Source of the DNA: Candidatus Daviesbacteria bacterium | GTDB lineage: Bacteria; Patescibacteriota; Microgenomatia; Daviesbacterales; UBA10151 | Direction: 5' to 3' | Length of the DNA stretch: 64,000 bases | NCBI GenBank assembly: GCA_016184225.1 | Contig: JACPDA010000005.1 | Coordinates: 67,590-131,589, forward strand | In this document: positions 9,173 through 62,581 of the stretch, in pieces | How positions within the stretch are numbered: position 1 is the stretch's first letter | How the letters are laid out: every line of letters starts with the position of its first letter | Made by a program: the position numbers and the translations under genes | The notes under the pieces: generated by a model | The model's database searches: none | The model's input: only the letters and a program-made list of their open reading frames with translations | What the model was told of the DNA's origin: nothing

Positions 9173-11039
9173 TATTGGCACCGGCACAAATTTACAAGCC
9201 ATTATTGATGGGGTTAAGTCCGGGCAAATTACTGCCAGTATTGTAGCTGTTATAAGCGATACCCCGGATGCCAAAGGCTTAGAGCGGGCAAAAAAATACA
9301 AGTTACCGATTGAAGTAGTTTCCAAAAAAGAAAACCTGTTGCCTCTTTTGAAAAAATTAGATCCGGATTATGTCTGCCTGGCCGGATGGAAGCAGATTAT
9401 TCTAGACAGCGTGATTGATGCATTTCCCAACCGGATTTTAAATACCCATCCGGGGTTAATACCAGACAGTATGGATGGGGTTGTAAAAAACCCGGATGAA
9501 ACCGAGGCATTGTGGAATAAAGGAAAAATGACCGATAAAGCGGTACGAAATTTTCTGGAAACTAAAGCCACTTACGCCGGATGCACGAATCACTTTTTAT
9601 CGCTTGAATTTGATTTTGGCCCGGTGTTGGGCAGGTGTTTTGAAAAAATCAAAAAAGGAGACACAATTGAATCTTTATATAAAAGATTAAAGGTAAAGGA
9701 AAATAAATTATATGTGGATGTTTTAGCTAAGTTAGTGCTTTCCAAAACAGTTATGGTCATTGACGGTGGAGGCAGAGGGGCGGCGTTAGTTGATAAATAT
9801 GCTCAGTCTAAAAAGGTATCTAGAATACTGGTTGTACCAGGTAATGATTTGATGCAAGTAAATACTAAAAAGCCGGTTATCACATACCAAAATCTTAAAA
9901 CCACCAGTATTCCTGAAATTCTAAAAATTTGTCAAAAAGAGAAAGTAGATTTGGTAGATGTAGCTCAAGATAATGCAGTAGAAGCTGGGTTGGTAGATCG
10001 ATTGGCGGAAATTGGTATTAATGTATTCGGTCCTACAAGAAAAGCAGGACAGATTGAATGGGATAAGGCCTGGGCCAGGAAATTCATGGTTAAATATCAA
10101 ATTCCAACTCCGAAGTTTCACGCTTTTAATTCAACAAAAGAAGGAATAGATTTTGTCAAAAAATATCCTGATTCAAAATGGTTTGTCAAAGCATCTGGGT
10201 TAGCAGAAGGAAAAGGGGCGATACCGGCATCAACTATTAATGAAGCCATTACAGCTATTGAACAAATGCAAAAGTTTGGAAAGTCCGGAGAAACTTATCT
10301 TTTAGAAGAGTGGTTGATCGGGGAGGAATTTTCCGCATTTGCCCTAAGTGATGGAAAAGAATTTAAAATGGTCGGTTTTGCACAGGACCATAAAAGAGTA
10401 AATGATGGGGACCAGGGAGAAAATACAGGAGGGATGGGTTGTGTTTCCAATCCTTTAATAATTGACAAAAATATCAGAAAACAAACAGAAAACATTTTCA
10501 TAAAAGTAATAGATGGGTTAAAAGAAGAGGGACGGCCATATAAAGGAGTTTTGTATTTGGGAGGGATTGTGGTTGAAGGAAAGGTGTTTATTATAGAATT
10601 CAATGCCAGATGGGGAGATCCTGAGGCAGAGGCGGTACTACCTTCAATACAAAATAATCTTTTTGATTTAGCAAACACAATTAATCTGGGCGGATTAAAG
10701 AAATTAAAAATAAGAATTGATAAAAAAGTAAGAGTGGTGATTGCAGCAACAGCAAAAGGTTATCCGGTAGATTATAAATCAGTGAGGGGTAAAAAAGTTT
10801 TAGGGATTGATAAGGTAAAGGAGACCGGAGTAAAAATTTATGGATCAGGTATTAAAAAAGTGGATTCAGGTTATACAGTTAATGGCGGAAGAGTTTTGTA
10901 TATAGTTGGCGAAGGGAAAAATGTTATAGAGGCAAGAGAAAGAGCTTACAAGGCAATGAGGCTGATTAGCATTGAAGGAAATAACTTGCATTACAGAACA
11001 GACATTGGCTGGCGTGACCTAGAAAGGATAAAAAGATGA
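9144..11039 (+). CDS. purN-purD: Fused GAR transformylase (PurN) and GAR synthetase (PurD)
   Basis: N-terminal PurN (KIAVLISNIGTGTNLQAI, NTHPGLIP, EFDFGPVLG) runs straight into PurD ATP-grasp (VMVIDGGGRGAALVDKY). Start moved to the MKKIAVL methionine at 9144. Confidence 0.8.
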   Translation: MKKIAVLISNIGTGTNLQAIIDGVKSGQITASIVAVISDTPDAKGLERAKKYKLPIEVVSKKENLLPLLKKLDPDYVCLAGWKQIILDSVIDAFPNRILNTHPGLIPDSMDGVVKNPDETEALWNKGKMTDKAVRNFLETKATYAGCTNHFLSLEFDFGPVLGRCFEKIKKGDTIESLYKRLKVKENKLYVDVLAKLVLSKTVMVIDGGGRGAALVDKYAQSKKVSRILVVPGNDLMQVNTKKPVITYQNLKTTSIPEILKICQKEKVDLVDVAQDNAVEAGLVDRLAEIGINVFGPTRKAGQIEWDKAWARKFMVKYQIPTPKFHAFNSTKEGIDFVKKYPDSKWFVKASGLAEGKGAIPASTINEAITAIEQMQKFGKSGETYLLEEWLIGEEFSAFALSDGKEFKMVGFAQDHKRVNDGDQGENTGGMGCVSNPLIIDKNIRKQTENIFIKVIDGLKEEGRPYKGVLYLGGIVVEGKVFIIEFNARWGDPEAEAVLPSIQNNLFDLANTINLGGLKKLKIRIDKKVRVVIAATAKGYPVDYKSVRGKKVLGIDKVKETGVKIYGSGIKKVDSGYTVNGGRVLYIVGEGKNVIEARERAYKAMRLISIEGNNLHYRTDIGWRDLERIKR

Positions 11040-13858
11040 TACAGAAGATAAGAGTGCAAACAATTGGACAACCCAATATTAAAGTTTACCGGTTGGAAGG
11101 GATATCAGTAAAAGATGCTAAAATTCTGGCTGAAAAATTATTGTCAGAGCGAATTAATCAAAAATACACAATAAATCAGCCTATTGCCCGCGGCAAAGTT
11201 ATTGAAATCGCCTATAAACCTGGTGTGATGAATCCGGAGGTGGTATCGATAACCAAAGCTGCATCTGATTTGGGGATTAAACTTATTTCCTGCGACAGTT
11301 CCATTGAATACCTCAGTCAAAAAGTTTCCTTTAATCCTTTAACAGAACACATAATTACAGAAGAACCAAAAACTCTGATTTTAAAAGCTAAACCCGGAAA
11401 GACACAAATTATTTCTATAAGAAATTTGACTGACCAGCAGTTGTTGGATTTATCCAAAGATACGCTTTTCCTTAATTTGGAAGAGATGAAAAAAGTCCAG
11501 AAGTATTTCCAAAAAATAAAAAGAGATCCGTCAGATTTGGAGCTTGAGACTTTAGCCCAAACTTGGAGTGAGCATTCCGGCCATAAAACTTTTAAAGCGG
11601 ATTTAATAATAGACGGTAAGGAAAAAGAACCCCTGATGACTCGGCTGAAAAAGGAAGCCTTAAAACATGATAAAAATATTGTTTCTGCCTTTGTTGATAA
11701 TTCCGGTGTGATGGATTTTTACGACGGTTTTGGGATTTGCGGTAAAGTAGAAACTCATAATGCCCCTTCAGCAATCGAACCTTACGGCGGGGCCATGACT
11801 GGTTCAGGCGGAGTATTCCGGGATATTGCTGCTACTGGTAAAGGCGCAAAAAACATTGCCTCAACAGATGTCTTTTGTTTTGCTCCATTGGATTTATCAG
11901 CTAATGAATTGCCCATGGGGTGTTTGCCGCCTGAATATTTACTAAAAAGGGTTGTGGCCGGTGTCAGGGATTATGGTAATAGGATGGGAATTCCCACTAA
12001 TAATGGCTCAGTTCATTTTCACAAAGATTTCCGGGCCAAGCCTTCGGTGATTGTAGGGGCCTTTGGAATTGTTCCCAAAAAATATGCCAAAAAGGAAAAG
12101 CCAAAAGTGGAAGATCTGATAATTACAATCGGCGGCAGAACAGGTAGGGATGGAATTCATGGGGCTACATTTTCTTCCGGAGAAATGACTGAGAAAACAA
12201 TTGAAGTGCATTCTTCCGCAGTCCAAATTGGCAATGCTATTGAAGAAAAAAGGATGTTTGATGCGCTATTGGAGGCGCGTGATCAGGATTTAATAAGGTT
12301 GGTGCAGGATTGCGGCGGAGGAGGATTTTCCTCAGCAATTGGGGAAATAGGTGAGGAGTTGGGGGTCTTGATTGACCTTAAAAATGCTCCTTTAAAATAT
12401 CAGGGTTTAGCTCCTTGGGAAATTTGGATGTCAGAGTCACAAGAGCGGATGATTGTGGTTTTAGAAAAAATAAACCTGAAGAAATTTGAGGATATTTGTA
12501 AAAAGTACAATGTGGAATTTGCAGTTTTGGGAAAGTTTGATGGAAGTAAGAAATTGAATGTGACTTTTGAAGGTAAAGTAGCTGGTGATTTAGACATGCA
12601 ATTTCTTCATCATGGGTTACCAAAAAGGATTCTAATAGCAAAAAAATCAAATCGTCATTCTGGGGAGCAAAGCGACTCCAGAATCAAAAAAGGATCCTGG
12701 ACAAGCCAGGATGACAGAGTGGAACAGCCTAAGACTGAAAGAGAATGGATAAAGGTTTTAGAAAAAGTGCTAGCTCATGGAAATGTTAATTCCAAAGAAC
12801 CAATTGTTAGATTGTATGATCATTCAGTTCAAGGGACAAATGATCTGCAGTCTTATTCGGGAACTAATTTAGATGGGCCAAATGATTCACCGGTTCTCCG
12901 CCCTTTTCTTGATAAGAAGTATGGCATGGTAATTTCCCATGGATTAAATCCTGTCTTAAATAATATAGATCCGTATTGGGGGAGCATCTGGGCGGCAACA
13001 GAAGCACTCTCCAATTTTGTAGCAGTCGGAGGGAATTACAAAGAAGCTTGCTTAATTAATAATTATATTTGGCCATTTCCGGATGAGCAGTCTCTTTGGT
13101 CTTTAGATAGGTCGGTTGATGCGGTTGTAGATTTTATGAAAACTTTCAAGATTCCTGTAATTTCTGGGAAAGACAGTTTGTCCTCGTCTTACAGAAGCAA
13201 AGATGGAAAAGTAATTAAAATCCCACCTGTACTTTGTATCTCCGTTTTGGGAAAAATTCCTGATGCCGGAAAAACTGTTACTGCAGATTTTAAACGCAGT
13301 GGTTCAACAATTGTTTTAGTAGGTAAAATGGATAAGAATCTTGGAGGCTCTGTTTATTATCAAGTACTTTACCCTGAGCGAGCGGAGCAAGTCGAAGGGC
13401 CAAAAGTTGATTTGAAGATTTTGCCAAAGACTTTTGATGCAATTTGCAAAGGGATACAGACTGGTAAGATTCTATCTTCCCATGATGTTTCGGAAGGTGG
13501 CGTAATTGGGGCTATTTTTGAAATGTGTGTAGGCGGAGGAATGGGAGCGACCATTCACCTCGGAGGAGTAACTTCGTCACACCTCCGAGGTGACCGAATG
13601 GGCTCCTCGGAGGTGGAATTCTTGTTTAATGAAACAGCAGGGTGTTTTATTGTGGAGGTGGAAAATGAAAGTATGGCAAAACAACTTTTTAAGAATGTGC
13701 CATTTAGGATTTTAGGTAAAACAAAAGAAGGAAATAAAATGGAAATATATGGAAATAAGACAAGCTTGCCGCTTCGCGATAAAAAGAAATTATTTGTTGT
13801 GGATGTAAATGATTTGAAGAAAGTTTGGCAGGAACCAATGAGGAGGTTATTCCCATGA
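11036..13858 (+). CDS. purL: FGAM synthase synthetase subunit PurL with a PurS-like N-terminal domain
   Basis: The AIRS-like PurL core (HSGHKTFKA…NAPSAIEPYGGAMTG) is preceded by about 170 aa resembling the PurS / large-PurL N-terminus (YKPGVMNPEVVSITKAASDLGI). It contains an in-frame repeat-element insert (RHSGEQSDSRIKKGSWTSQDD). Confidence 0.85.
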   Translation: MIQKIRVQTIGQPNIKVYRLEGISVKDAKILAEKLLSERINQKYTINQPIARGKVIEIAYKPGVMNPEVVSITKAASDLGIKLISCDSSIEYLSQKVSFNPLTEHIITEEPKTLILKAKPGKTQIISIRNLTDQQLLDLSKDTLFLNLEEMKKVQKYFQKIKRDPSDLELETLAQTWSEHSGHKTFKADLIIDGKEKEPLMTRLKKEALKHDKNIVSAFVDNSGVMDFYDGFGICGKVETHNAPSAIEPYGGAMTGSGGVFRDIAATGKGAKNIASTDVFCFAPLDLSANELPMGCLPPEYLLKRVVAGVRDYGNRMGIPTNNGSVHFHKDFRAKPSVIVGAFGIVPKKYAKKEKPKVEDLIITIGGRTGRDGIHGATFSSGEMTEKTIEVHSSAVQIGNAIEEKRMFDALLEARDQDLIRLVQDCGGGGFSSAIGEIGEELGVLIDLKNAPLKYQGLAPWEIWMSESQERMIVVLEKINLKKFEDICKKYNVEFAVLGKFDGSKKLNVTFEGKVAGDLDMQFLHHGLPKRILIAKKSNRHSGEQSDSRIKKGSWTSQDDRVEQPKTEREWIKVLEKVLAHGNVNSKEPIVRLYDHSVQGTNDLQSYSGTNLDGPNDSPVLRPFLDKKYGMVISHGLNPVLNNIDPYWGSIWAATEALSNFVAVGGNYKEACLINNYIWPFPDEQSLWSLDRSVDAVVDFMKTFKIPVISGKDSLSSSYRSKDGKVIKIPPVLCISVLGKIPDAGKTVTADFKRSGSTIVLVGKMDKNLGGSVYYQVLYPERAEQVEGPKVDLKILPKTFDAICKGIQTGKILSSHDVSEGGVIGAIFEMCVGGGMGATIHLGGVTSSHLRGDRMGSSEVEFLFNETAGCFIVEVENESMAKQLFKNVPFRILGKTKEGNKMEIYGNKTSLPLRDKKKLFVVDVNDLKKVWQEPMRRLFP
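12654..12715. repeat. Dispersed palindromic repeat family 2 (GTCATTCTGG…GACTCCAGAATC…GATYCTGGACAAGCCAGRATGAC), in-frame in purL
   Basis: gtcattctggggagcaaagcgactccagaatcaaaaaaggatcctggacaagccaggatgac. Confidence 0.75.
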
Positions 13859-14637
13859 AGCCCAAAGTATTAGTTTTAAAAGCAGATGGGACAAATCGGG
13901 ATTACGAGATGTCATATGCTTTCAATGTTGCCGGGGGGAATCCCAAAATAGTGCATGTAAATGAACTTAGAAACGGATCTGAAAAAATGAGTGATTATCA
14001 AATCCTTGCTTTGCCCGGTGGATTTGCCTATGGGGATGATATTGTTTCCGGAAAAATCCTGGCAATAGAACTTACCTCTTTTTTAGGTCAGGAAATGAGA
14101 AAGTTTATTGACAGAAAAGATACGGCAATAATTGGAGTGTGCAACGGGTTTCAGGTTTTAGTCAGAACCGGACTTTTGCCGTTTAGAAAAATCGGGGAAA
14201 TGGATGTGACTTTAACTAACAATGATTCAGGACATTTTGAATGCCGGTGGATTAAGTTAAAAGTTAACGGTAAAAACAACAGCAAATTCCTTCAGGGAAT
14301 AGATGGAATAATGTGGCTTCCCATAGCGCATGGAGAAGGAAAATTCCTTACCGATCAGAAAACTTTAAAAGAAATAGAAAATAAAAATCTGGTAGCCTTT
14401 AGGTATGTAGATGATAATGGCAGCCCGACACAAAAGTATCCGGATAATCCGAACGGTTCCTTAAATGCCATAGTCGGGATAACAGATGAGACGGGAAGAA
14501 TTTTAGGGATGATGCCGCATCCGGAGTGTTTTATTAGAGCAGAGCAACACCCAAACTGGAGACGTGGTACAGTGAAAGTTGACGGCTTACCAATTTTTGA
14601 AAATATAGTGAAATTTGCGAAGGAGAATAAAAAATGA
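13855..14637 (+). CDS. purQ: FGAM synthase glutaminase subunit
   Basis: Class I GATase with the catalytic Cys in GVCNGFQ and an ATGA overlap with purL. Confidence 0.85.
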   Translation: MKPKVLVLKADGTNRDYEMSYAFNVAGGNPKIVHVNELRNGSEKMSDYQILALPGGFAYGDDIVSGKILAIELTSFLGQEMRKFIDRKDTAIIGVCNGFQVLVRTGLLPFRKIGEMDVTLTNNDSGHFECRWIKLKVNGKNNSKFLQGIDGIMWLPIAHGEGKFLTDQKTLKEIENKNLVAFRYVDDNGSPTQKYPDNPNGSLNAIVGITDETGRILGMMPHPECFIRAEQHPNWRRGTVKVDGLPIFENIVKFAKENKK

Positions 14638-16193
14638 TTTTATTAATTGATTTCGGATCACAGACAACACATTTAATAGCAAGAAGGGTTAGAGAACTGG
14701 GGTCAGAGGTTGAGATTGCAACTCCCGAAGTTGCCGTACAAAAAATTAGAGCAGAGGAAATACAGGGAATAATTTTATCCGGAGGGCCGGCAGCGGTTTT
14801 TGAAAAACAGTCCCCGACAGTTAACCCGGAGATTTTTGAGTTAGGTATTCCGGTTTTAGGGATTTGTTACGGACAACAATTAATGTGTCATTTATTAGGA
14901 GGAGAAGTAGTGGCTGGTAGAAAAAGAGAGTATGGACCGGCGGTAGTTAGGCAACAGGCAACAGGCGATAAGCGGAGCTTGCGACCTAGCGGTCTTAGGC
15001 CACAGTTTTTGGAAGGGATACCGGATGAGTTTACCGCTTGGATGAGTCACGGGGATCAGGTAATTAAGATACCGGAAGGGTTTGTGACATATGGCACAAC
15101 GGAGACAATACCACACGCTATTATTGCTAATGAAAAAAGAAAATTTTATGGAATTCAGTTTCATCCTGAAGTGGTCCATACCGAATTTGGGGAACAAATC
15201 CTTAAAAACTTTTTAGAAATTTGTGGAATAAAAATAAAGAAACAAGAAATTGACGGCGAGTTTGTAGAAAATCTTATTAAAAATATCAGGGATTCGCTGG
15301 GAGAGGAAAAAGCGATTTGCGCTTTGTCCGGAGGAGTTGATTCTTCTGTGGTAGCGCTTTTGGTGCACAAAGCCATCGGTAAAAATTTAACATCTGTTTA
15401 TGTTGACTCCGGATTAATGAGGGAAGGCGAGACGGAAACTCTGAGGAGTGTTTTCCAACAGCATTACAAAATGAATGTTGATATAGTTGATGCAAAAAAA
15501 GAATTTCTCAAAGCATTAAAGAAAGTTGTGGATCCGGAGCAAAAAAGAAAAGCTATTGGCAAAACTTTTATAGAAGTTTTTGATAATGTGGCAAAAAAAA
15601 TTTATGCCAAGTTTTTGGTCCAGGGAACTATTTATCCGGATGTGATAGAGTCCGCCGGCAGCAAGCACTCGCAAAAAATAAAATCACACCACAATGTTGG
15701 AGGTTTGCCGGAAGAGATGAATTTAATTTTAATTGAACCTTTAAGAAATTTTTATAAAGATGAAGTAAGAAAAATTGGTAGGATTTTAGGACTCCCTGAT
15801 GAGATTATAGAAAGGCAACCTTTTCCCGGTCCGGCCCTTGCAGTAAGAATTATTGGTGAGGTGACAGAAGAAAAGTTAGAGATTTTAAGGAAAGCAGATA
15901 AAATTGTACTAGAGGAAATAGAAAAAGCCGGGTTAGGTAAAAAACTTTGGCAATATTTTGCAGTTTTTACCGGCATTAAAACTACCGGCGTCCGGGGAGA
16001 CCAGAGGTTTTACGGTGAAACAATTGCCATCCGGGCAATTGAAGCAACCGATGCCATGAGTGCCAGCTTTGCCAAACTGCCTTATGATTTACTTGATAAA
16101 ATTTCCACCAGGATTGTCAATGAGGTTCCCGAAGTGAACCGCGTAGTTTATGACATTACCAATAAACCCCCAGCCACTATGGAATGGGAGTAG
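14634..16193 (+). CDS. guaA: GMP synthase (glutamine-hydrolysing)
   Basis: GATase domain, ATP-PPase SGGVDSSV motif and a C-terminal dimerisation domain. Confidence 0.9.
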   Translation: MILLIDFGSQTTHLIARRVRELGSEVEIATPEVAVQKIRAEEIQGIILSGGPAAVFEKQSPTVNPEIFELGIPVLGICYGQQLMCHLLGGEVVAGRKREYGPAVVRQQATGDKRSLRPSGLRPQFLEGIPDEFTAWMSHGDQVIKIPEGFVTYGTTETIPHAIIANEKRKFYGIQFHPEVVHTEFGEQILKNFLEICGIKIKKQEIDGEFVENLIKNIRDSLGEEKAICALSGGVDSSVVALLVHKAIGKNLTSVYVDSGLMREGETETLRSVFQQHYKMNVDIVDAKKEFLKALKKVVDPEQKRKAIGKTFIEVFDNVAKKIYAKFLVQGTIYPDVIESAGSKHSQKIKSHHNVGGLPEEMNLILIEPLRNFYKDEVRKIGRILGLPDEIIERQPFPGPALAVRIIGEVTEEKLEILRKADKIVLEEIEKAGLGKKLWQYFAVFTGIKTTGVRGDQRFYGETIAIRAIEATDAMSASFAKLPYDLLDKISTRIVNEVPEVNRVVYDITNKPPATMEWE

Positions 16194-16781: not shown

Positions 16782-18164
<1,383 letters not shown>

Positions 18165-21802: not shown

Positions 21803-23214
21803 TGAAAGTGCAAAGTGCAAAGTGCAAAGTGCAAAGTTATGATAGTTACCAATCACCATTTTCTTGGAGATATGGATCAGAAAAAATGAGAGAGATATTC
21901 TCAGAAGAGAAGAAATATAAACTTTGGAGAAAGATTTGGGTAGCTCTTGCAAAAGCACAAGCAAAAGAAGGTTTGGTATCAAAAGAAGAACTGGCAGACC
22001 TGGAAAAAAATCAAGACAACATAGATATCGAACGGATTTGGGAAATTGAAAAAGATACCTGGCATGACACCGTAGCGGCAATAAAAGAATTTGCTGAGAA
22101 AGCCAAAATCGGCGGCGGCAAAATACACCTCGGTGCCACTTCCATGGATATTTCCGATAATGCTGAAACTATTAGGATTAGGGAAGCCTTGGATATAGTT
22201 GAAAAAAGACTCGTAGCTTTGCTACTCGCGCTTTCTTCGAAAGTAAAAAAATATGCTAACTTTCCCTGTATGGGGTATACCCATCTGCAGCCGGCAGAAC
22301 CAACAACCTTAGGATATAGATTTGCTTTCTACGCCCAGGATCTTTTAATGGATCTGGAACTTTTAAGATTTGTTAAGAAGAATTTAAAGAGTAAAGGTTT
22401 AAAGGGCGCAGTCGGAACATCAGCCAGTTATGTTAAATTGTTGGATAGGAAAAAAGCAGAAGAGATGGAAGTTAGGATTTTAAGGGAGTTAGGGGTAGAA
22501 GCATTTGAAATTACCAATCAAACTGCGTCCAGAAAGATAGAATTTTGGGTAGCCAGCTTACTCGCGGGAGTTGCACAGTCCTTGAATAAATTTGCCTTTG
22601 ATTTAAGGATTATGCAGTCACCCGGGTTTGGTGAATGGCAGGAGCCGTTTGGAGTTTTGCAGGTTGGTTCATCCGCAATGCCTTTTAAGAAAAATCCTAT
22701 TAAAGCAGAACAAATTTGTTCTTTGTCCAGGCTGGTGGTGAATTTATCAAAGACTGCCTGGGATAATGCTTCCATGATGTTACTTGAGCGGACTCTGGAT
22801 GATTCGGCTAACAGAAGAGTAGTAATTCCGGAAATGTTTTTGGCAATTGATGAAATGCTAAATTCTACCGCAAATATTGTTGAAGGATTAATTGTAAATG
22901 ACAAACAAATAATGAGAAATTTGGAAAAATATTGGCCTTTTTCTGCAACAGAAGGAATTATTCTGGAAGCAGTAAAACAGGGGGCAGACAGACAAAAAAT
23001 GCATGAGGCGCTCAGAGAAATTGCCATGAGAGCGTGGAAGTCTATCCAAGAAGGGAATCCAAATCCAATACAGGATTTATTAGAAGAAAATTCCACTATT
23101 AAACAGTACTTAAAACCAATAGAAATAATAGAAGTTCTGGATGCAAAAAATCATGTTGGTAATGCAAAAGAAAAAGCTTTGACTTTGGCGGATCAAATTG
23201 ATAGATTGACATAA
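21802..23214 (+). CDS. purB: Adenylosuccinate lyase
   Basis: Fumarate-lyase family with a PurB N-terminus (SWRYGSEKMREIF). The first codons are a heptanucleotide tandem repeat (MKVQSAKCKVQS). Confidence 0.85.
   Translation: MKVQSAKCKVQSYDSYQSPFSWRYGSEKMREIFSEEKKYKLWRKIWVALAKAQAKEGLVSKEELADLEKNQDNIDIERIWEIEKDTWHDTVAAIKEFAEKAKIGGGKIHLGATSMDISDNAETIRIREALDIVEKRLVALLLALSSKVKKYANFPCMGYTHLQPAEPTTLGYRFAFYAQDLLMDLELLRFVKKNLKSKGLKGAVGTSASYVKLLDRKKAEEMEVRILRELGVEAFEITNQTASRKIEFWVASLLAGVAQSLNKFAFDLRIMQSPGFGEWQEPFGVLQVGSSAMPFKKNPIKAEQICSLSRLVVNLSKTAWDNASMMLLERTLDDSANRRVVIPEMFLAIDEMLNSTANIVEGLIVNDKQIMRNLEKYWPFSATEGIILEAVKQGADRQKMHEALREIAMRAWKSIQEGNPNPIQDLLEENSTIKQYLKPIEIIEVLDAKNHVGNAKEKALTLADQIDRLT
21804..21838 (+). 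repeat. Heptanucleotide tandem repeat (CAAAGTG x about 5) within the first codons of purB
   Basis: gaaagtgcaaagtgcaaagtgcaaagtgcaaagtt. Confidence 0.8.
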
Positions 23215-24955: not shown

Positions 24956-25456
24956 ATGATAAAGAAAAATTCATTAAGTTATTTTTTGCTTCTTGGTTTG
25001 GAGAAATCGATTCAGAGTGGCGTTTTGCTAATTGATTTTGCCTACAATTCCCACTGGTATGTTTATCCCGGGCGAGACCCAAGAGATATAAATTACGGCG
25101 CTCTTTATCAGGCAGTTAGGGATTTGCGTGAGAAAGGCTTTATTGAAACCGAAAAAGACGGCAGAAAAATTATGTTGAAATTAACAGATAAAGGTAGGGA
25201 AGAGGCAATAGTAAAAAAGCTCTTAGCAGAAGAGAAATGGGATAGGAAGTGGAGAATTGTTATTTTCGATGTTCCGGAAAAGCACCGGAAATTAAGAAAA
25301 ATCTTGCGGAGTAAACTTAGGGAGTGGGAATTTGAGCCTTGGCAGAAAAGTGTTTGGGCAGGTAAAAAGGATGTAACAAGTCCATTGCGAAATTTTATTA
25401 AAGAGGTTGGTTTATCTGATTGGGTAAGGGTGGTAGTCGGTGCTGATGTAGCTTAG
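24956..25456 (+). CDS. Short PaaX-family-like transcriptional regulator (wHTH plus WDGKW-motif domain)
   Basis: Matches the PaaX N-terminus/middle region (…KWDRKWRIVIFDVPEKHRKLRKILRSKL…QKSVWAG). Paralog of 59013..59507. Confidence 0.6.
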   Translation: MIKKNSLSYFLLLGLEKSIQSGVLLIDFAYNSHWYVYPGRDPRDINYGALYQAVRDLREKGFIETEKDGRKIMLKLTDKGREEAIVKKLLAEEKWDRKWRIVIFDVPEKHRKLRKILRSKLREWEFEPWQKSVWAGKKDVTSPLRNFIKEVGLSDWVRVVVGADVA

Positions 25457-26374: not shown

Positions 26375-27352
26375 ATGGCAACGACTAATGGTTTTGTACT
26401 TTTAACAGGGACTGCTAATTTAAAACTTGCCAAAGATATTGCTAAAGTTTTGGGAAAAGATGCTGATGAAACCGTGAGCGTTTTTGCTGACGGCGAAAAG
26501 AGAATTGTTATCCCCGAGAATTTAAGGAAAAGAGATGTTTTTATAATCCAACCCACTTGTCCGCCGGTTGATGCAAACATTATGGAACTGCTTTTGATAA
26601 TAGACGCTGCAAAAAGATCATCCGCCTCAGAAGTAACAGCCATAATTCCTTATTTTGGATACTCCAGGCAGGACCGCAAAGATCGACCGCGAGTTCCCAT
26701 ATCAGCGTCTTTGGTTGCCAGGTTAATTGAATTTTCCGGGGCAGACAGAATTTTGACGGTTGATATCCACTCGGAGCAAGAGCCCGGATTTGTGGAAATC
26801 CCTTGGGATAATTTATACAGCAGTTACTCTTTTCTTCCCCAGCTAAAAAAATATTTCGGATCAAACTTAATTGTTGCCTCGCCTGATAAAGGCGGAGTTT
26901 TAAAAGCTGCATTTTATGCGGATCTGCTTGACGCTGATGGAGTGGCGATTGTTTTTAAGGAAAGGGATGTGATGAAAAAGAATGAAAGCAAGGCTTTGGA
27001 TATGATTGGTGACGTTAAGGGCAAAGACGTATTAATTGTGGATGATATGATTGATACGGCCGGAACGATTTGTGAAGCTGCTAAATTGATTAAGGGAAAA
27101 GGGGCAAAAAGCGTATCTGCTGCTGCTGCTCATGGGCTTTTTTCCGACCCTGCCATAGAACGGATTAACGACTCACCCCTAGATAAGATTTTTATCACAG
27201 ATACAGTGCCGCTTAGGAAGGAAGTTTTGGAGAGCCAAAAGTTTATTGTAATATCAGTGGCTAACCTTTTGGCAGAAGCTATAAACTGTATTCACAATGG
27301 TGATTCAATTTCTGAAAAATTAATCCCCAAAACTCACGAAGAAAGAAACTAG
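26375..27352 (+). CDS. prs: Ribose-phosphate pyrophosphokinase
   Basis: PRPP-binding motif (VLIVDDMIDTAGT) and the Prs N-domain. Confidence 0.9.
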   Translation: MATTNGFVLLTGTANLKLAKDIAKVLGKDADETVSVFADGEKRIVIPENLRKRDVFIIQPTCPPVDANIMELLLIIDAAKRSSASEVTAIIPYFGYSRQDRKDRPRVPISASLVARLIEFSGADRILTVDIHSEQEPGFVEIPWDNLYSSYSFLPQLKKYFGSNLIVASPDKGGVLKAAFYADLLDADGVAIVFKERDVMKKNESKALDMIGDVKGKDVLIVDDMIDTAGTICEAAKLIKGKGAKSVSAAAAHGLFSDPAIERINDSPLDKIFITDTVPLRKEVLESQKFIVISVANLLAEAINCIHNGDSISEKLIPKTHEERN

Positions 27353-27372
27353 CCCTTCGACTACGCTCAGGG
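27353..27372. repeat. Family 1 variant core between convergent prs and purM
   Basis: cccttcgactacgctcaggg. Confidence 0.55.
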
Positions 27373-27374
27373 TT

Positions 27375-42734: not shown

Positions 42735-43016
42735 ATGAATTCATATTATTTAACTTTAGTTTTAAGACCTGATTTGGAAGAAAAAGAGAGAAAGGTACTC
42801 CTAGATTCCATTAGCAAAAAGGTCAGTGGAACTGAAGGCAAGATTGAAAAGGAAGACCTTTGGGGGGTACGTACTTTAACCTATCCAATTAAGAGAAATA
42901 CCTCGGGTTACTTTGCCCACTTTGAAATCTCCGGCGATCCAAAGAATGTAAAAGGTCTTGACAAAAGTTTGAAAGTAGAAGAAGATATCTTACGTTATCT
43001 TCTAATTCGAAAATAG
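42735..43016 (+). CDS. rpsF: 30S ribosomal protein S6
   Basis: 93 aa with S6-like sequence and the S6-ssb-S18 gene order. Confidence 0.85.
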   Translation: MNSYYLTLVLRPDLEEKERKVLLDSISKKVSGTEGKIEKEDLWGVRTLTYPIKRNTSGYFAHFEISGDPKNVKGLDKSLKVEEDILRYLLIRK

Positions 43017-43020
43017 AAAA

Positions 43021-43581
43021 ATGGCCTCAAGATCTTGGAATAGAGTAGAACTAATAGGTAATTTAACCAGGGACCCGGAACTTCGATATACCCCTAATGG
43101 TGCTGCTGTTTGTACTTTTGGCATGGCCACCAACCGCACTTATGTGACTGAGGGCGAGAGAAAAGAAGAAGCAGATTTTCACAGATTAGTGGCCTGGAAT
43201 AAACTGGCTGAACTTTGTAATCAACTTTTGAAAAAGGGCAACCGGGTTTTTGTTTCCGGAAGGCTGCAGACCCGGTCCTGGGAAGGCCAAGATGGTCAAA
43301 CCAGAAACGTTACGGAGATTGTGATAGAGGATATGATTTTGCTGACTCCTAAAAGTAACGGAGATTATACACCGGTACCGGAAGATGTGGGGGTAGAGCC
43401 GGTTAAAGTAAAAGAGTCGAAGGAGTCAGAGGAGCCGGAAGAATCAAAGGCAGAGAAAAAGACAGAAATTCAAAAAGAAGAGCCTAAAGAAAAAGAAGAA
43501 CCAAAGACAGAATCCTTCGACTCCGCTCAGGACAAGAAAGCCGCCCCCAAAGAAGAAGTAGAGGATGATCTTCCATTCTAA
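43021..43581 (+). CDS. ssb: Single-stranded DNA-binding protein
   Basis: OB fold (VELIGNLTRDPELRYTPNGAAV) and an acidic tail ending DDLPF. The tail includes a dispersed-repeat core (ESFDSAQDK). Confidence 0.9.
   Translation: MASRSWNRVELIGNLTRDPELRYTPNGAAVCTFGMATNRTYVTEGERKEEADFHRLVAWNKLAELCNQLLKKGNRVFVSGRLQTRSWEGQDGQTRNVTEIVIEDMILLTPKSNGDYTPVPEDVGVEPVKVKESKESEEPEESKAEKKTEIQKEEPKEKEEPKTESFDSAQDKKAAPKEEVEDDLPF
43514..43533. repeat. Family 1 core in-frame in the ssb C-terminal tail
   Basis: tccttcgactccgctcagga, translated SFDSAQD. Confidence 0.6.
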
Positions 43582-44017: not shown

Positions 44018-44097
44018 TATAGAATAGTGACTAGTCGCTAGAGTCTAGAGTCAAGTAATTATTTTCTAGACTCTAGATTCTAGACACTTGACTCTAA
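44018..44097. repeat. Intergenic repeat family 4 (ATAGTGACTAG…GAGTCAAG…TCTAGACTCTAGA…ACTCTA), copy A after rpsR
   Basis: About 80 bp, partly palindromic and rich in tctaga/gagtc. Confidence 0.6.
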
Positions 44098-44099
44098 CT

Positions 44100-44768
44100 A
44101 TGCCCAAACTGCCCGGACTTTTTGACAGCTTTGATAACCTGGATCAAATTTCACCGGAGGATATAGCTCTAGGTTTAAAACCCATACCCCAAGCTAACCT
44201 CTTAGAAAATTACCTGGGAAATAGGATTTTATACCCGGGGACTCTTCCTTTAACCGAGCAGGATATGAAAATAGACTTAAGTATTCTGCGGGAGGCCTTA
44301 AAACAAACCAATCCAAAACCTCCACACCAGAAGCTGAATGCTTTACTTGGGGATAACCCTTTTCTCAATACGACACTTAGGAAAGTACTTATACCTGTAA
44401 GATTCCTTGATTTCGTTCCGGATCTTAAGAGTTTAGTGCTTACTTTCATTGATGCGCTGCTTTTGGGACGCGAAAGACAAGACTTTTTTGAGGATTTATG
44501 GACCATTGTTTTAACCGATGATATTGATGAGGTAGCCGGTTCACTGCTTCTGCCGCAATTTGATGGTAGCAGCGGAGTAATGAATCTAAGGTTACAGGGA
44601 GAGAGATACGAGATTAATCAGGGAAGCTTCAAGATTATATCTTGTCCGAAAGAGCGGTGCGAGATAGCGTATAAGCTTCAAAAAGGCCGGATGCTGGGAA
44701 AACAAGAGAGTGCAGTTGAAATTTATGGAGGAAAGCTAGGGTTGGTGGTTGACGGGAGATCAGTATGA
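44100..44768 (+). CDS. Hypothetical protein (about 222 aa)
   Basis: ORF translationally coupled to the next gene. Confidence 0.4.
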   Translation: MPKLPGLFDSFDNLDQISPEDIALGLKPIPQANLLENYLGNRILYPGTLPLTEQDMKIDLSILREALKQTNPKPPHQKLNALLGDNPFLNTTLRKVLIPVRFLDFVPDLKSLVLTFIDALLLGRERQDFFEDLWTIVLTDDIDEVAGSLLLPQFDGSSGVMNLRLQGERYEINQGSFKIISCPKERCEIAYKLQKGRMLGKQESAVEIYGGKLGLVVDGRSV

Positions 44769-48552: not shown

Positions 48553-49279
48553 TAATAAGTACCCTTTGTTTTTTGGCAAGGTCGGTTTTGACCTCTACTT
48601 TTGCTTGGGGAAAATATTTTTGGGCTTCATTTGCTGCCAGTTCTCCGTGGGTATAGTCAATTTCTCCGATAATCAATTTAGGTTTCCAACCTACACTCCA
48701 GGAGTGTAAGTTCGAATTCACTCCTGGAGTGGAAAGCTGTTTGATCTGTTGGAAAAGTTTCCGGTAAAGTTCAAAGCCATCTTCTCCGCCGTCCAAGGCA
48801 ACATGTGGTTCAAAGTCTTTGACTGAAGAGTCTAAATAAGGAATCCTGGCAGAAGGGATGTAAGGTAAGTTAGTGACAATGACTAGGTTACAGGTTTCAG
48901 GGTACAGGTTACAGTTTAACCCGGAAAGCAAATTACTTTTTAAAAAAGTGATTTTATCTTCAACTCCATGGAGTTTGGCATTTTGTCTGGCTACTTTTAA
49001 AGCTTTCTGGGAAATATCTGAAGCAATAATAGTTACGTTTACACCCTTGGGGTGGAGGCTTAGGTTTTTGGCAATGGAAATGGCAATGTTGCCGGAGCCG
49101 GTGCCAAGGTCTAAAATGAGGTTACAGGTTTCAGGGTACAGGTTACAATAATTTAAAACTTCATCTACTAAAAGTTCTGTTTCCGGGCGGGGGATTAGAA
49201 CATCAGGAGTGACTTTGAAACGTAATTTGTAAAATTCAACCCAACCTTTAATGTACCCAGAGGGCTTTGATGATGTCAT
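48530..49279 (-). CDS. prmC: Release-factor glutamine N5-methyltransferase
   Basis: SAM motif (LDLGTGSG) and an NPPY-type motif (TNLPY). Carries two in-frame copies of a 29-bp repeat ([10 protein letters not shown]). Confidence 0.8.
48886..48914. repeat. Repeat family 3 (GGTTACAGGTTTCAGGGTACAGGTTACAG), in-frame in prmC
   Basis: Translated on the minus strand as [10 protein letters not shown]. Confidence 0.7.
49120..49147. repeat. Family 3 second copy, in-frame in prmC
   Basis: ggttacaggtttcagggtacaggttaca, translated [10 protein letters not shown]. Confidence 0.7.
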
Positions 49280-50605: not shown

Positions 50606-50697
50606 GCATAGTATAGCAAAAATAGTGACTAGAGTCGAGAGTCAAGAGTCTAGACTTAAAAATTCCTAAACTCTAGAACCTAGCAACTAGACTCTAT
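50606..50697. repeat. Family 4 copy B between eamA and rpmE
   Basis: Shares the atagtgactag / gagtcaag / tctagac / actctaga / actcta blocks with copy A. Confidence 0.6.
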
Positions 50698-58902: not shown

Positions 58903-58974
58903 AATAAAAGTACTTGAGGTATTATATCAAGTTTAACTTGATGAAAAAAGGATAAAGAGGAAATTAAAGTCTGT

Positions 58975-59004
58975 ACAAATGTCCTCCGATCGTGGTACAT
59001 TTGT
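58975..59004. promoter_or_regulatory. Palindrome ACAAATGT-CCTCCGATCGTGGT-ACATTTGT overlapping the promoter (TGtGATAAT) of PaaX-like gene 2
   Basis: 8-bp arms around a CGATCG core; the ATG follows within about 9 nt. Confidence 0.5.
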
Positions 59005-59012
59005 GATAATAT

Positions 59013-59507
59013 ATGGCACGACCACCAAGCAAGCGAAAGGTTCTAACAGATTTAGTTCTTTTAGCTTTAGAGAAATCAATTGACGGGTATGTAGCGTTTG
59101 AAGATTTCATTTACAATCCACTGCTAGAAAGACCTGTTAAAAAATCAGTCCTTTCTCAGGTTATAAAAAGACTTCGGGATCAAGGTTTAGTGGAGTTTAT
59201 TAGTGATAATGAGTTAATTTTAAGATTGACTGATTCTGGTAGAGATAAAGCGCTATGGAAGAAGATGGCTCTCGGAGATGAGAAATGGGATGGGAAATGG
59301 CGGCTGGTAATATGGGATGTGCCGGAAAAAAGGAGATTGGCTAGGGATTTACTAAGGTTTAAACTTAAACAGTTAGGTTTTAAACAGTGGCAAAAAAGTG
59401 TTTGGGCTTCAAAGATAAACTGTACTAAGTTATTACGAGATTTTATCAAGCAAGTAGGAATAGAGGATTGGGTGATGGTGATTGAATCCGATAACGTAGG
59501 AGTTTAA
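59013..59507 (+). CDS. Short PaaX-family-like transcriptional regulator (paralog of 24956..25456)
   Basis: KWDGKWRLVIWDVPEKRRLARDLL…QKSVWASK; N-terminal wHTH. Confidence 0.6.
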   Translation: MARPPSKRKVLTDLVLLALEKSIDGYVAFEDFIYNPLLERPVKKSVLSQVIKRLRDQGLVEFISDNELILRLTDSGRDKALWKKMALGDEKWDGKWRLVIWDVPEKRRLARDLLRFKLKQLGFKQWQKSVWASKINCTKLLRDFIKQVGIEDWVMVIESDNVGV

Positions 59508-59508
59508 A

Positions 59509-59538
59509 CATTTGTCCTCCGATCGTGGTACAAATGTG
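59509..59538. promoter_or_regulatory. Near-identical palindrome ACATTTGT-CCTCCGATCGTGGT-ACAAATGT immediately downstream of PaaX-like gene 2
   Basis: Same 14-nt core in direct orientation with the arms swapped. Confidence 0.5.
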
Positions 59539-59590
59539 ACAAACAATGCAATCTAGACTTTTTTAACCGATTTATGTATAAGTTACTTCT

Positions 59591-62263
59591 ATGAATAAAT
59601 CTACAAAAAATGAAGTCAGGCTTCCGGTGCATGTTAAGCCTGAGCGGTACAGGATTATGCTCCGGCCGGATCTGGAGGGGTTTACATTTTACGGCGAAGA
59701 AACAATTTTTTTGGTTTTAGAAAAGCCCACCAAACAAATTACCCTGCATGCTGCTGAGCTGGAGATAGAATCGGCAGAATTTATACATGGTAACAAAGAG
59801 GTATGGGCTGGGAGGATTAATTATGATAAAAAAGCGGAAACTGCTACATTTACTTTTGCTAAAAATATTCAAAAAGGCAAAGGACAATTAAAGCTTGCTT
59901 TTAAGGGAATCTTGAATGATAAAATGCGGGGCTTTTACCGTTCCCGCTATGAAGTGAGTGGAGTATCAAAGCATCTGGCTACTACCCAGTTTGAATCAAC
60001 TGATGCCAGGAGGGCTTTTCCCAGCTTTGATGAACCCGCTCAAAAGGCTGTTTTCGATGTGACTTTAGTGGTTCCTGCCAAGACTGTGGCTATCTCCAAC
60101 ACCATTGAATCTAACATCCGAGAACATGAAAGCGGTTACAAGGTAATAGAGTTTGCCCCAACCCCGAAAATGTCTACTTATCTTTTAGCCTTTATTGTGG
60201 GGGAGTTTGAGAGTGTAGAAGTGCAAAGTGCAAAGGGCAAAGTGATAAGGGTTTTTACCACACCGGGTAAAAAAGAACAAGCCAGATTTGCCCTTGATGT
60301 AGCCGGAAAATGCTTGGATTTCTATGAACAATACTTTGGTATCTCTTACCCTTTGCCGGTGTTGGATCTTATTGCAATACCTGATTTTGCTGCCGGGGCC
60401 ATGGAAAACTGGGGAGCAGTGACATATCGCGAATCTTTGCTGTTAATTGATGAGGAGGCTTCCTCCACTGCCAATAAACAATGGGTGGCTTTAGTGATTG
60501 CCCATGAGCTGGCTCACCAGTGGTTTGGCAATTTAGTCACTATGGAGTGGTGGACCCACCTTTGGTTAAATGAAGGTTTTGCCTCATTTATTGAATTCTT
60601 GGCTATTGACCATATTTTCCCGGAGTGGGATATCTGGACCCAATTTGTAGGGAGCGAAATGGGTGAAGCTTTCTCGCTGGACGGCTTAAAAAACACCCAC
60701 CCGATTGAGGTGGAGGTGGGCCATCCGGCCGAGATTTCCGAGATTTTTGATAAGGTCAGCTATTCCAAAGGAGCCTCAATTCTGCGTATGCTTATGTCTT
60801 ATCTGGGGGAAAAAGATTTTCAAAAAGGGTTGCAATTTTATCTTAAAAAACATGCTTATGGAAATGCGGAGACCCAGGATTTGTGGAAAGCATTGGAAGA
60901 AGTTTCCGGGAAACCTGTTGGCAAGCTGATGAAAAACTGGACCTCAAAGCCCGGACATCCGGTGATAAGGTTACAGTCAACAGGCAGCAGGCTACAGTTA
61001 ACACAAAGCAGGTTTTTCTCCTCTCCAATTTCTAAAAGAAAGACGAAAGATGGTGCTGTCTGGAGTATTCCTATCACTGTCATTCTGGGGAGTTCTGCAA
61101 GGCAGAACGACTCCAGAATCGATTCTGGACAAGCCAGAATGACTAATCTATTAATGAATAAAAAATCCATGACTATTTCAGGAATTAAAGATAACGAGTG
61201 GATTAAATTAAATGCCGGGGAGGCGTCATTAGTTAGAGTTGATTATCCGCAGGAATATCTCAAGAAGCTGGAAGAGGCGGTTAAGAATGGAAAACTGCCT
61301 GCAGTGGACAGGTTGGGCCTAATCAGAGATTCTTTCTCTTTGGCAGAGTCAGGTCAAAGCCCAACCACTTTATCTTTGGAGCTGACTCAAAGTTACATGG
61401 GTGAAGAAGATTATACTGTTTGGGCTGAGCTGACGGGAAAACTGCTGCAGCTTGATTCTCTTTTAGCTCTGGAACCATTTTATCCGGATTTCAAAAAATA
61501 CGGCATAAAGATTTATCAAGATATAGGGGGTAAGCTAGGCTGGAAAGCAAGAAAAGGAGAAAAGCATACAGATTCCCTGCTGCGGGGTATGGTTTTAAAT
61601 ATGCTGGGAGGGTTTGGAGATGGGGAGACTATAAAGGTGGCTCAGGAATTATTTAGAGCTTATGTAGTACGTCATTCTGGGGAGCGCAGCGACTCCAGAA
61701 TCAAAGGGGGGGATTCTGGACAAGCCAGAATGACAAGTAGTCACGGCATTCATCCTGATTTAAAGGGAGTTGTTTACAATTTGGTGGCGGAAAACGGTGG
61801 AAAAAAAGAATTCGATACTTTGATGAAGATGTACAAGCAAGAGGAAAATCAACAGGAAAAAGATCGGATTGGCCGGGCTTTGGGGAAGTTTAAAATTAAA
61901 GCCCTTCTTTCTAAAACCCTGGATTTTTCTATTTCCAAGCATGTGAGATTCCAAAACAGTCTGCAAATTATTGCAGCTGTTTGGGCTAATCCGGTCGGCC
62001 GTTATCTGGCCTGGGAGTTTGTAAAAAAGAATTGGAAATTGTTAAAAGATAGGTATGCAGGGGGCCATTATTTTACCAAAGTTTTTGGACCGGCCGGAAG
62101 CTTTACCAAAAAAGTTGATGCCAAAGATATTGAATCCTTTGTCAAGAAAAATCCTGTCCCGGAAGCCAAAAGAACCATTGCCCAAGCCTTGGAACAGATT
62201 TATTCCAATGCAGAGTGGCTAAAAAGGGATAGACAGAAAATCAAAGATTTTCTGTTAAGATAA
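59591..62263 (+). CDS. pepN: Aminopeptidase N (M1 family)
   Basis: GAMEN and HELAHQW…E zinc motifs. Carries two in-frame palindromic repeat inserts (SSARQNDSRIDSGQARMT; RHSGERSDSRIKGGDSGQARMTS). Confidence 0.9.
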   Translation: MNKSTKNEVRLPVHVKPERYRIMLRPDLEGFTFYGEETIFLVLEKPTKQITLHAAELEIESAEFIHGNKEVWAGRINYDKKAETATFTFAKNIQKGKGQLKLAFKGILNDKMRGFYRSRYEVSGVSKHLATTQFESTDARRAFPSFDEPAQKAVFDVTLVVPAKTVAISNTIESNIREHESGYKVIEFAPTPKMSTYLLAFIVGEFESVEVQSAKGKVIRVFTTPGKKEQARFALDVAGKCLDFYEQYFGISYPLPVLDLIAIPDFAAGAMENWGAVTYRESLLLIDEEASSTANKQWVALVIAHELAHQWFGNLVTMEWWTHLWLNEGFASFIEFLAIDHIFPEWDIWTQFVGSEMGEAFSLDGLKNTHPIEVEVGHPAEISEIFDKVSYSKGASILRMLMSYLGEKDFQKGLQFYLKKHAYGNAETQDLWKALEEVSGKPVGKLMKNWTSKPGHPVIRLQSTGSRLQLTQSRFFSSPISKRKTKDGAVWSIPITVILGSSARQNDSRIDSGQARMTNLLMNKKSMTISGIKDNEWIKLNAGEASLVRVDYPQEYLKKLEEAVKNGKLPAVDRLGLIRDSFSLAESGQSPTTLSLELTQSYMGEEDYTVWAELTGKLLQLDSLLALEPFYPDFKKYGIKIYQDIGGKLGWKARKGEKHTDSLLRGMVLNMLGGFGDGETIKVAQELFRAYVVRHSGERSDSRIKGGDSGQARMTSSHGIHPDLKGVVYNLVAENGGKKEFDTLMKMYKQEENQQEKDRIGRALGKFKIKALLSKTLDFSISKHVRFQNSLQIIAAVWANPVGRYLAWEFVKKNWKLLKDRYAGGHYFTKVFGPAGSFTKKVDAKDIESFVKKNPVPEAKRTIAQALEQIYSNAEWLKRDRQKIKDFLLR
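61079..61143. repeat. Family 2 copy, in-frame in pepN (variant left arm)
   Basis: gtcattctggggagttctgcaaggcagaacgactccagaatcgattctggacaagccagaatgac. Confidence 0.75.
61671..61734. repeat. Family 2 copy, in-frame in pepN (near-perfect palindrome)
   Basis: gtcattctggggagcgcagcgactccagaatcaaagggggggattctggacaagccagaatgac. Confidence 0.8.
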
Positions 62264-62306: not shown

Positions 62307-62554
62307 ATGGCGAAAAGCTTTGAGGAGCTTGAAATTTGGAAAAAAGCACATGAGTTATCTATGAAACAATTCATTTCCTATACGACTCTCGTGCTTCAGC
62401 ACAGGAAGTCAGGAACTGTTTAATGTTAGCCAAGGATTTAAAAGAGATCGCTATGAGGATTGAAGAATTTGCTGTTTTTGATGTAGAATACATAGGATTA
62501 ATTAAAGGAATTAATGGGTTTGTGAGTTATCTGAGAAATAAAAACTCTAGTTAA
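62307..62554 (+). pseudogene. Internally deleted/frameshifted four-helix-bundle (23S IVS protein family) gene remnant
   Basis: N-terminal MAKSFEELEIWKKAHEL, then a stop; a second frame continues with LAKDLKEI…IGLIKGINGFVSYLRNK, which matches the family C-terminus. The middle of the protein is missing. Confidence 0.5.
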
Positions 62555-62581
62555 CTAATCAACCAATTAACTAATTTACTT

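Follow-up and report, generated by a model that had tools for sequence, protein, structure and literature searches.

Hairpin-repeat dimers of the CGTC-tagged type inserted in frame in pepN and purL of a Candidatus Daviesbacteria bacterium

Background

How two copies of a palindromic repeat can lie in frame within one aminopeptidase gene, and to what kind of repeat they belong, is the question raised by a 64-kb stretch of DNA (referred to below as the window) from contig JACPDA010000005.1 of Candidatus Daviesbacteria, a Microgenomates lineage of the Candidate Phyla Radiation (CPR). The gene codes for an M1-family aminopeptidase and will be called pepN. An initial annotation, made from the sequence alone, had described the two copies as members of a dispersed palindromic family, had counted a third in-frame copy in the same window and had concluded that frame-preserving insertion was selected for. 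The copies are indeed insertions, and each of them joins two hairpin modules in an inverted dimer. Their membership in a described superfamily, that of the CGTC-tagged repetitive extragenic palindromic (REP) sequences and Ssn-related hairpins, had been missed by the initial annotation, as had the dimer structure and the probable by-product nature of the encoded peptide.

Results

The palindromic segments of pepN are insertions

The possibility that the two segments are conserved pepN sequence, which the initial annotation had itself raised, was looked at in an alignment of 120 Daviesbacteria-type orthologues that are 65-81% identical to the window protein. Most of these proteins are empty at site 1 (...WSIPL-NG-KLMDKK...) and at site 2 (...AQELFKK-GKIDPDL...), at each of which the window protein carries 22 extra residues. 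Both sites also coincide with gaps in the alignment to the human puromycin-sensitive aminopeptidase (PDB 8sw0). The window copies are thus insertions of a dispersed repeat and not native pepN sequence, as had been proposed.

In an AlphaFold model built on the 120-orthologue alignment (mean predicted local distance difference test score, pLDDT, 86; predicted template modelling score 0.88), the only internal segments with pLDDT below 50 are residues 507-513 and 699-717, which lie inside the inserts. Site 1 corresponds in this model to the loop between strands 493-501 and 516-522, and site 2 to the loop between helices 678-695 and 722-734. The third copy, which is located in purL, falls within a gapped linker region when the protein is aligned to Thermus thermophilus PurL (3viu). 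As judged from the alignment and the model, the situation resembles that of the Rickettsia palindromic elements (RPE): an in-frame insertion in a conserved gene, placed in a surface loop, with the fold kept.

The elements are built of two inverted hairpin modules

Direct reading of the sequence confirmed the arms, the coordinates and the open read-through that had been given for the two pepN copies. In copy 1 (61079-61143) the arms are GTCATTCTGG (61079-61088), TCCAGAATC (61112-61120), GATTCTGGA (61121-61129) and CCAGAATGAC (61134-61143), and the same four arms are present in copy 2 (61671-61734). With its 66 nt, each pepN insert amounts to 22 codons, and the pepN frame stays open through both of them (...ITVILGSSARQNDSRIDSGQARMTN..., residues 497-518, and ...VVRHSGERSDSRIKGGDSGQARMTSS..., residues 694-715). 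The third in-frame copy was located in the gene of FGAM synthase (purL, open reading frame (ORF) 11036-13858, + strand). The 23-nt right module GATTCTGGACAAGCCAGAATGAC occurs without mismatch at 61121-61143 and 61712-61734 and with two mismatches at 12693-12715; no match was obtained in 100 dinucleotide shuffles. In copy 3 the stem of the right module is compensated (ATCCTGG/CCAGGAT). The extents of the elements and of their modules are listed in Table 1.

The elements are not single palindromes. Each consists of two hairpin modules in inverted orientation with their tags pointing outward. On its own strand, a module consists of a [C/T/A]GTC tag, a 7-bp AT-initial stem (ATTCTGG), a loop, the returning stem CCAGAAT and a C. 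The tags of the six window modules are TGTC, AGTC, CGTC, TGTC, CGTC and TGTC, and in all six the palindrome stands between GTC and C. The loop is 5 nt long (CTTGT) in the right module and 8-21 nt long, with a nested hairpin, in the left module. This left-module loop is hypervariable between copies: in the place of the CGCAGCGA of copy 2, copy 1 contains a 17-nt nested hairpin (GTTCTGC-AAG-GCAGAAC, 61092-61108). The existence of subfamilies, suggested in the initial annotation, is thereby borne out.

Table 1. Positions of the repeat elements, their modules and the pepN host gene in the window
Feature	Position	Strand	Details
Element copy 1, inverted dimer of two hairpin modules without spacer	61078..61144	+	pepN residues 497-518, VILGSSARQNDSRIDSGQARMT
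Copy 1, left module: TGTC tag, ATTCTGG stem, nested-hairpin loop, CCAGAAT stem, trailing C	61078..61120	+	sequence, structural scan, fold
Copy 1, right module, on its own strand: AGTC tag, ATTCTGG, loop CTTGT, CCAGAAT, trailing C	61121..61144	-	structural scan
Element copy 2: left module 61670-61702, spacer AAAGGGGGG 61703-61711, right module 61712-61734(5)	61670..61735	+	pepN residues 694-715, RHSGERSDSRIKGGDSGQARMT
Element copy 3, in frame in purL: left module 12653-12685, spacer 12686-12692, right module 12693-12715	12653..12715	+	
M1-family aminopeptidase, pepN-like, nearest to puromycin-sensitive aminopeptidase	59591..62263	+	890-residue ORF; Pfam, PDB match

Folding of the pepN copies was compared with that of shuffled sequences on both strands, and z values of -3.9 to -5.8 were obtained. 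Because either strand of each copy folds well above shuffles, a DNA palindrome fits these data better than a strand-specific RNA. Rfam, applied at gathering thresholds to the window as a whole, returned one tRNA only and no match on the elements, and a scan with NCBIfam detected no domain, RPE-type or other, within the inserts.

The frame in which this DNA is read differs from copy to copy. The left module reads VILGSS in copy 1 and RHSGE in copies 2 and 3, and the right module DSGQARM in pepN and WTSQDD in purL. Since different copies use different frames of the same DNA, the encoded peptide appears to be a by-product: the conserved unit would be the DNA palindrome, and the 21-22-residue peptide is predicted to be disordered. 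In copy 2 three of the six frames are free of stops, the AATGAC end giving TGA in one frame per strand. The selection for frame-preserving insertion that the initial annotation had deduced is better read as a survivorship filter, taking into account that about three of six frames are stop-free, that the length of the spacer is variable and that most copies are intergenic (see below).

The window holds only three copies of the ATTCTGG family and a few modules of a related one. The high genome-wide load that the initial annotation had deduced would go beyond what 64 kb can show. Modules of this second CGTC-type family, GTCATCCTGAGCGAAG(T)CGAAGGATC, were noted at 1717-1742, 2041-2067, 17014-17056, 43512-43533 and 27352-27373. 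Two of the copies lie within intergenic DNA or close to it, purA (ORF 16785-18164, minus strand) contains a composite copy in frame, and a half copy supplies ESFDSAQDK to the C-terminal tail of SSB (ORF 43006-43578). It is probably this family that the initial annotation had called 'family 1'.

The modules are dispersed over many phyla

A scan with CTGGACAAGCCAGRATGAC of one genome per species (596 Gb) yielded at least 119 loci, compared with an estimated 9 or so expected by chance. The identical 23-nt right module was thus encountered in many phyla. Among the matches listed, to which the following figures also refer, the hosts were Nitrospirota (Thermodesulfovibrionia), many classes of Patescibacteria, metagenome-assembled genomes labelled as Gammaproteobacteria, Ignavibacteria and others. 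The match was usually partnered by a tagged module 20-60 nt upstream, GTCATTCCCGCTTGTCGGGAATC in Nitrospirota and, as in the window, GTCATTCTGGGGAGC...GCGACTCCAGAATC in CPR. The repeats are therefore dispersed multicopy inverted dimers, with three in the window and mostly paired modules at the loci elsewhere.

The stem covaries. At its variable position, the 130 copies listed from other genomes had GATT..A in 106 cases and GATC..G in 18, and mismatched pairs were not found. Most copies (94 of the 130) are intergenic. The fraction lying within an open stretch of at least 150 codons was 23/51 (about 45%) in CPR vs 4/44 (9%) in Nitrospirota (Fisher p = 9e-5). Viral contigs gave five matches, of which two or three are real dimers, and therefore do not point to a clear phage vector. 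At one locus (L119) two inverted copies 5.3 kb apart bracket six ordinary-looking ORFs.

The same modules bracket small GIY-YIG genes

Members of the Ssn family (cd10448) are site-specific single-strand DNA nucleases of the GIY-YIG type (Chenal et al. 2025, Nat Commun 16:2388, PMC11893778). Their binding to NTS/SRM hairpins (CGTCATTCCCGCGMAVGCGGGAATCYRG) is confined to DNA in single-stranded form, and the cut falls a few nucleotides upstream of the tag; cutting depends critically on the GTC that precedes the palindrome, and binding on the C behind it (Chenal et al. 2025, PMC11893778). The NTS-ssnA-NTS architecture was likened by these authors to insertion sequences (PMC11893778).

When the 1,513 ORFs of 119 repeat-bearing loci among the matches listed were clustered all against all, attention was drawn to an ORF of about 95 residues that lies between a left and a right module and consists of a single GIY-YIG domain (Pfam PF01541, E 5e-12). 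Such a gene is bracketed by the modules in loci L047, L077, L082, L107, L124 and others. The unit at positions 1442-1789 of L124 is complete, its ends being the window's left and right modules and its Ssn-homologous ORF lying at 1492-1788. The spacing of the catalytic residues in the CPR protein (Y7/Y18/E65) is the same as in SsnA (Y6/Y17/E64).

An unbiased test set was assembled from 80 metagenomic loci picked by similarity of the GIY-YIG protein alone. The tag motif upstream and its complement downstream were found in 50 of the 71 loci with enough flank, compared with about 2% by chance. With the expected orientation 50-52 of 64 loci were positive, whereas the orientation controls gave 20-22 of 64. 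Inverted repeats between the flanks exceeded all 20 shuffles in 44 of 68 loci, and they start nearly always with [CT]GTCAT. The stem families are matched between the two sides of one GIY-YIG gene and differ among loci. Because the same two modules that form the window copies bracket a GIY-YIG gene elsewhere, these copies look like gene-less miniatures of the Ssn unit.

Tandem duplications of module-plus-flank units were noted beside GIY-YIG genes (L107 5780-6300, L059 58-112 and L040). In L107 a repeated 48-nt unit at the 3' end terminates in GATTCTGGACAAGCCAGAATGACG, and a repeated 52-nt unit at the 5' end contains CGTCATCCTGGCTCCGCCCAGGATC. Such duplications suggest local amplification at the element ends.

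Two pepN loops have been used repeatedly

Among the orthologues, which were ordered into clades by the unweighted pair-group method with arithmetic mean, 16 of the approximately 43 inserts of at least 12 residues are at site 1 and 21 at site 2, together 37. Judged by their DNA, the inserts of these two loops belong to at least five GTCAT...ATGAC families: ATTCTGG, ATTCCTGCG (dRS3-like), ATCCTGAGCG, ATTGCGAGG and ATCCTGGAGGGAGCG. In the clade of eight to which the window belongs, three families occur at site 2, and four members have this site empty. The insertion points vary by several nucleotides between lineages inside the same three-codon loop, and no target-site duplication was detected at eight filled sites that were compared with empty ones. 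The variable insertion points, the lack of target-site duplication and the variety of families therefore favour many independent gains filtered by protein tolerance. Two candidate signals of the insertion step were rejected. A GTAGT repeat around copy 2, considered as a target-site duplication, was not reproduced at other filled sites, and a sequence-specific insertion target does not agree with insertion points that vary between lineages within one loop.

The presence/absence polymorphism in close relatives anticipated by the initial annotation proved to be real, not only at the pepN sites. The nearest relative (L120) has an intergenic dimer between efp and galU (around 14000-14072) that has no counterpart in the syntenic region of the window. 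A pepN element of the window recurs at the same site in L120 (NCBI) and L121 (JGI), which are separate records of a relative. Two single modules of L120 also lack a window counterpart: an ATTCTGG module further downstream (15444-15468), and a dRS3-like module (10645-10670) that is in frame at pepN site a213 and encodes the peptide IDSRFRGND.

Between the window and L120, element 1 is identical at 65 of 66 nucleotides and at 22 of 22 third positions, the lone difference being in a loop. Over the whole of pepN the identity is 76.6%, and 56.7% at third positions; the flanks of element 1 are ordinarily diverged. In a sliding-window control this placed element 1 in the top 0.35% of 22-codon windows. 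Since the same control found 63/66 in an ordinary segment, an earlier formulation in which the element was the most conserved part of pepN was toned down. The comparison is suggestive, not compelling, of a nucleotide-level constraint on element 1.

The pepN gene and its surroundings

The G+C content of the window is 40.6%. The pepN product has a counterpart of 100% identity among the NCBI proteins of Candidatus Daviesbacteria, and contains the Pfam domains Peptidase_M1_N, Peptidase_M1 and ERAP1_C. Its best PDB match is 8sw0, the puromycin-sensitive aminopeptidase (E 4e-238), with an alignment that spans nearly the full length, and all bacterial PepN models of NCBIfam scored below cut-off against it. 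This closeness to the eukaryotic enzyme and not to the bacterial PepN models hints, as far as sequence similarity can tell, at an unusual evolutionary history of the gene.

A short (AAGTGCA)n heptamer run is located at 21806-21835, upstream of an ORF start near 21.8 kb, and has an 86%-identical match inside pepN (60219-60253, around residues 210-221). The latter region is a minor insertion site, where KGK-rich or dRS3-like inserts occur in other orthologues.

Directly upstream of pepN is a PaaX_M/MarR-like gene (ORF 59013-59507), with a paralogue near 25.2 kb (25228-25359). It is flanked by a 42-nt direct repeat (58968-59009 and 59501-59542, 81% identical) containing a palindrome, ACAAATGT...ACATTTGT around CCTCCGATCGTGG; the repeats could serve as operators or form the two ends of a small cassette. 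The gap between pepN and efp (62308-62555) contains a frameshifted remnant of a gene for a 23S-rRNA-intervening-sequence/four-helix-bundle protein, translated as MAKSFEELEIWKKAHEL... and then, in another frame, as ...EVRNCLMLAKDLKEI... In relatives this spot carries an intact four-helix-bundle gene (L204) or none (L122). Other repeats, unrelated to the elements, are CTAGAGTC/TCTAGAC-rich stretches and TACAGG-rich 29-mers (44023-44103, 50616-50654; 48885-49147), the 29-mers including two identical copies 234 nt apart.

Discussion

Origin and maintenance of the elements

We consider it likely that the elements are gene-less miniature inverted dimers of CGTC-tagged hairpin repeats, which are dispersed via a cognate Ssn-like nuclease and survive in tolerant loops. 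In the envisaged mechanism the 62-66-nt copies would be internal-deletion derivatives of a module-GIY-YIG-module unit, comparable to MITEs, the miniature transposable elements with inverted repeats. A cognate nuclease encoded elsewhere in the genome or in the community would act on the hairpins in single-stranded DNA, and this activity, together with host repair or recombination, could disperse the dimers without target-site duplication. For a copy to survive within a gene, its length would have to be a multiple of three, its frame would have to bypass the TGA that the AATGAC end contains, and the copy would have to lie in a tolerant surface loop. Both pepN loops and the purL linker agree with these limits on length, frame and loop.

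Several observations weigh against this explanation. A tblastn search detected no GIY-YIG/Ssn gene in the 64-kb window or in L120-L123 (22.7 kb in the case of L120), therefore a cognate nuclease in the source genome has to be assumed. To our knowledge, no strand transfer is known for GIY-YIG enzymes, which weakens the proposed dispersal step. The left-module loop, with its 8-21 nt and nested mini-hairpin, departs from the 4-5 nt of the CGTC-tagged REPs. The published SRM search pattern, HGTCWYN(0-2)YYVSBRHN(0-5)WNVSBRGN(0-2)RNCYNB, found no match in the six modules or elsewhere on the two strands of the window; it did match the NTS consensus, which served as positive control. Censuses based on this pattern would therefore overlook the ATTCTGG variant. 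Finally, the argument from conservation is weakened by the ordinary C-terminal pepN segment (residues 857-880) that reaches 63/66 identical nucleotides.

It is less probable, in our view, that the hairpins are kept for a nucleic-acid function of the host, either as Ssn sites that limit recombination or transformation or as mRNA structures that pause translation between domains, an explanation that overlaps with the preferred one. The near-identity of element 1 in the window and L120 amid ordinarily diverged flanks would fit such a function, as would the position of its lone difference in a loop, the regular compensation of stem changes, the identity of the 23-nt module across phyla and the host-level role in Neisseria (Chenal et al. 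2025, PMC11893778). It is, however, hard to reconcile with most orthologues having no insert at all and with the use of different families at the same loop in different lineages, and the identity, approached by the ordinary segment mentioned above, could also be explained by recent gene conversion or re-insertion. More doubtful still is an extended version, in which the pepN loops are recurrent points of integration and exchange where Ssn-associated hairpin families are gained, swapped and kept by nucleotide-level selection. If this were true, CPR would carry functional single-strand-nuclease recognition hairpins within essential genes, and pepN, with its dozens of independent filled and empty alleles, would be a natural assay of Ssn/hairpin movement.

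A benefit at the protein level, such as a flexible loop or an interaction peptide added to PepN, could be read from the inserts being kept in frame and from the repeated extension of two independent loops across lineages. It appears very unlikely in view of the unrelated peptides that the same DNA yields depending on the frame and of the occupation of one and the same loop by five or more unrelated peptide families; moreover, the segments are predicted to be disordered, and conservation tracks the DNA palindrome. Small dispersed palindromic dimers forming hairpins on both strands are also what would be expected of classical REP/REPIN sequences moved by a RAYT of the IS200/IS605 type, or of MITEs with terminal inverted repeats moved by a DDE transposase. 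We hold this to be highly improbable: the tag is CGTC/TGTC and not GTAG, target-site duplication is lacking, the gene between the full-length termini is of the GIY-YIG and not of the Y1 or DDE type, and no RAYT flanked by CGTC repeats has been found (Di Nocera et al. 2013, PMC3733652). That the segments are native to pepN or result from an assembly artefact has next to no probability, even though the exact window protein is on record from one contig only. Besides the empty sites of most orthologues, the recurrence of the same element at the same site in L120 and L121 and the presence of related elements in dozens of orthologues from other studies speak against it.

The locus extends in-frame insertion of hairpin repeats, best known in Rickettsia, to the CPR. 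The pepN data provide a comparative set (120 orthologues, two loops, about 37 long inserts, at least five families beside empty alleles) that can be used to study insertion rules, turnover and constraints of CGTC-type repeats. Inserts of this kind enlarge and diversify CPR proteins, and annotation and alignment can be misled by them.

Comparison with known systems

Palindromic elements in frame in housekeeping genes of Rickettsia were reportedly described by Ogata and co-workers (Science) in 2000. RPE-1 is about 100-150 bp long and probably unrelated in sequence to the window elements. Like the RPEs, the window elements are palindromic repeats lying in frame in housekeeping genes, and they would contribute a short surface peptide that does not disrupt the protein; unlike them, they reside in an uncultured groundwater CPR lineage and not in an obligate intracellular alphaproteobacterium.

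There is close agreement with the CGTC-tagged REPs, which are defined by a CGTC/TGTC tag, AT-initial stems and 4-5-nt loops, form mostly inverted dimers, encode 20-30 residues when inside genes and include dRS3 of Neisseria and RPE-4/RPE-6 of Rickettsia (Di Nocera, De Gregorio and Rocco 2013, BMC Genomics 14:522, PMC3733652). No dedicated transposase was described for them (PMC3733652). The window elements share the end tag, the AT-initial stem, the 5-nt loop in the right module, the dimeric arrangement, the length of the peptides encoded within genes and the lack of target-site duplication and, as far as the window ORFs were screened, of an associated RAYT. They differ in the stem, which is 7 bp (ATTCTGG) instead of the 8-9 bp of families 1-4, in one tag (AGTC) outside the listed variants CGTC, TGTC and CCTC, and in the host, the CPR being a group unsampled in 2013 and showing a high intragenic fraction.

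With the REPIN-RAYT system (Bertels and Rainey 2011; Nunvar 2010) the elements have in common the replication of inverted REP dimers, the bracketing of a single-copy nuclease gene by the repeats and the lack of target-site duplication. That system combines a GTAG tag with a Y1 HUH transposase, whereas a CGTC tag is combined here with a GIY-YIG nuclease, and no GTAG tag was found on the window modules.

The association of hairpin modules with Ssn GIY-YIG genes is already known, having been published in 2025. The NTS/SRM hairpins share with the window modules the GTC before and the C after the palindrome, and in related loci inverted modules flank a GIY-YIG gene of about 95 residues whose Y/Y/E spacing is identical to that of SsnA. 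In contrast, the window has no ssn gene, and CPR genomes and in-frame intragenic copies were not treated by Chenal et al. (2025, PMC11893778), the words 'Patescibacteria' and 'Candidatus' being absent from the main text; what was demonstrated there for Neisseria is a host-level role in limiting transformation, not transposition. The repeat class itself and its in-frame behaviour (RPE, with RPE-4/6 as the classic example) are thus known, and the new points are the CPR host, the variant architecture of the modules and the reuse of two pepN loops. The literature on CGTC-tagged REPs and RPEs and that on Ssn nucleases describe one kind of repeat, and the case of the window joins them.

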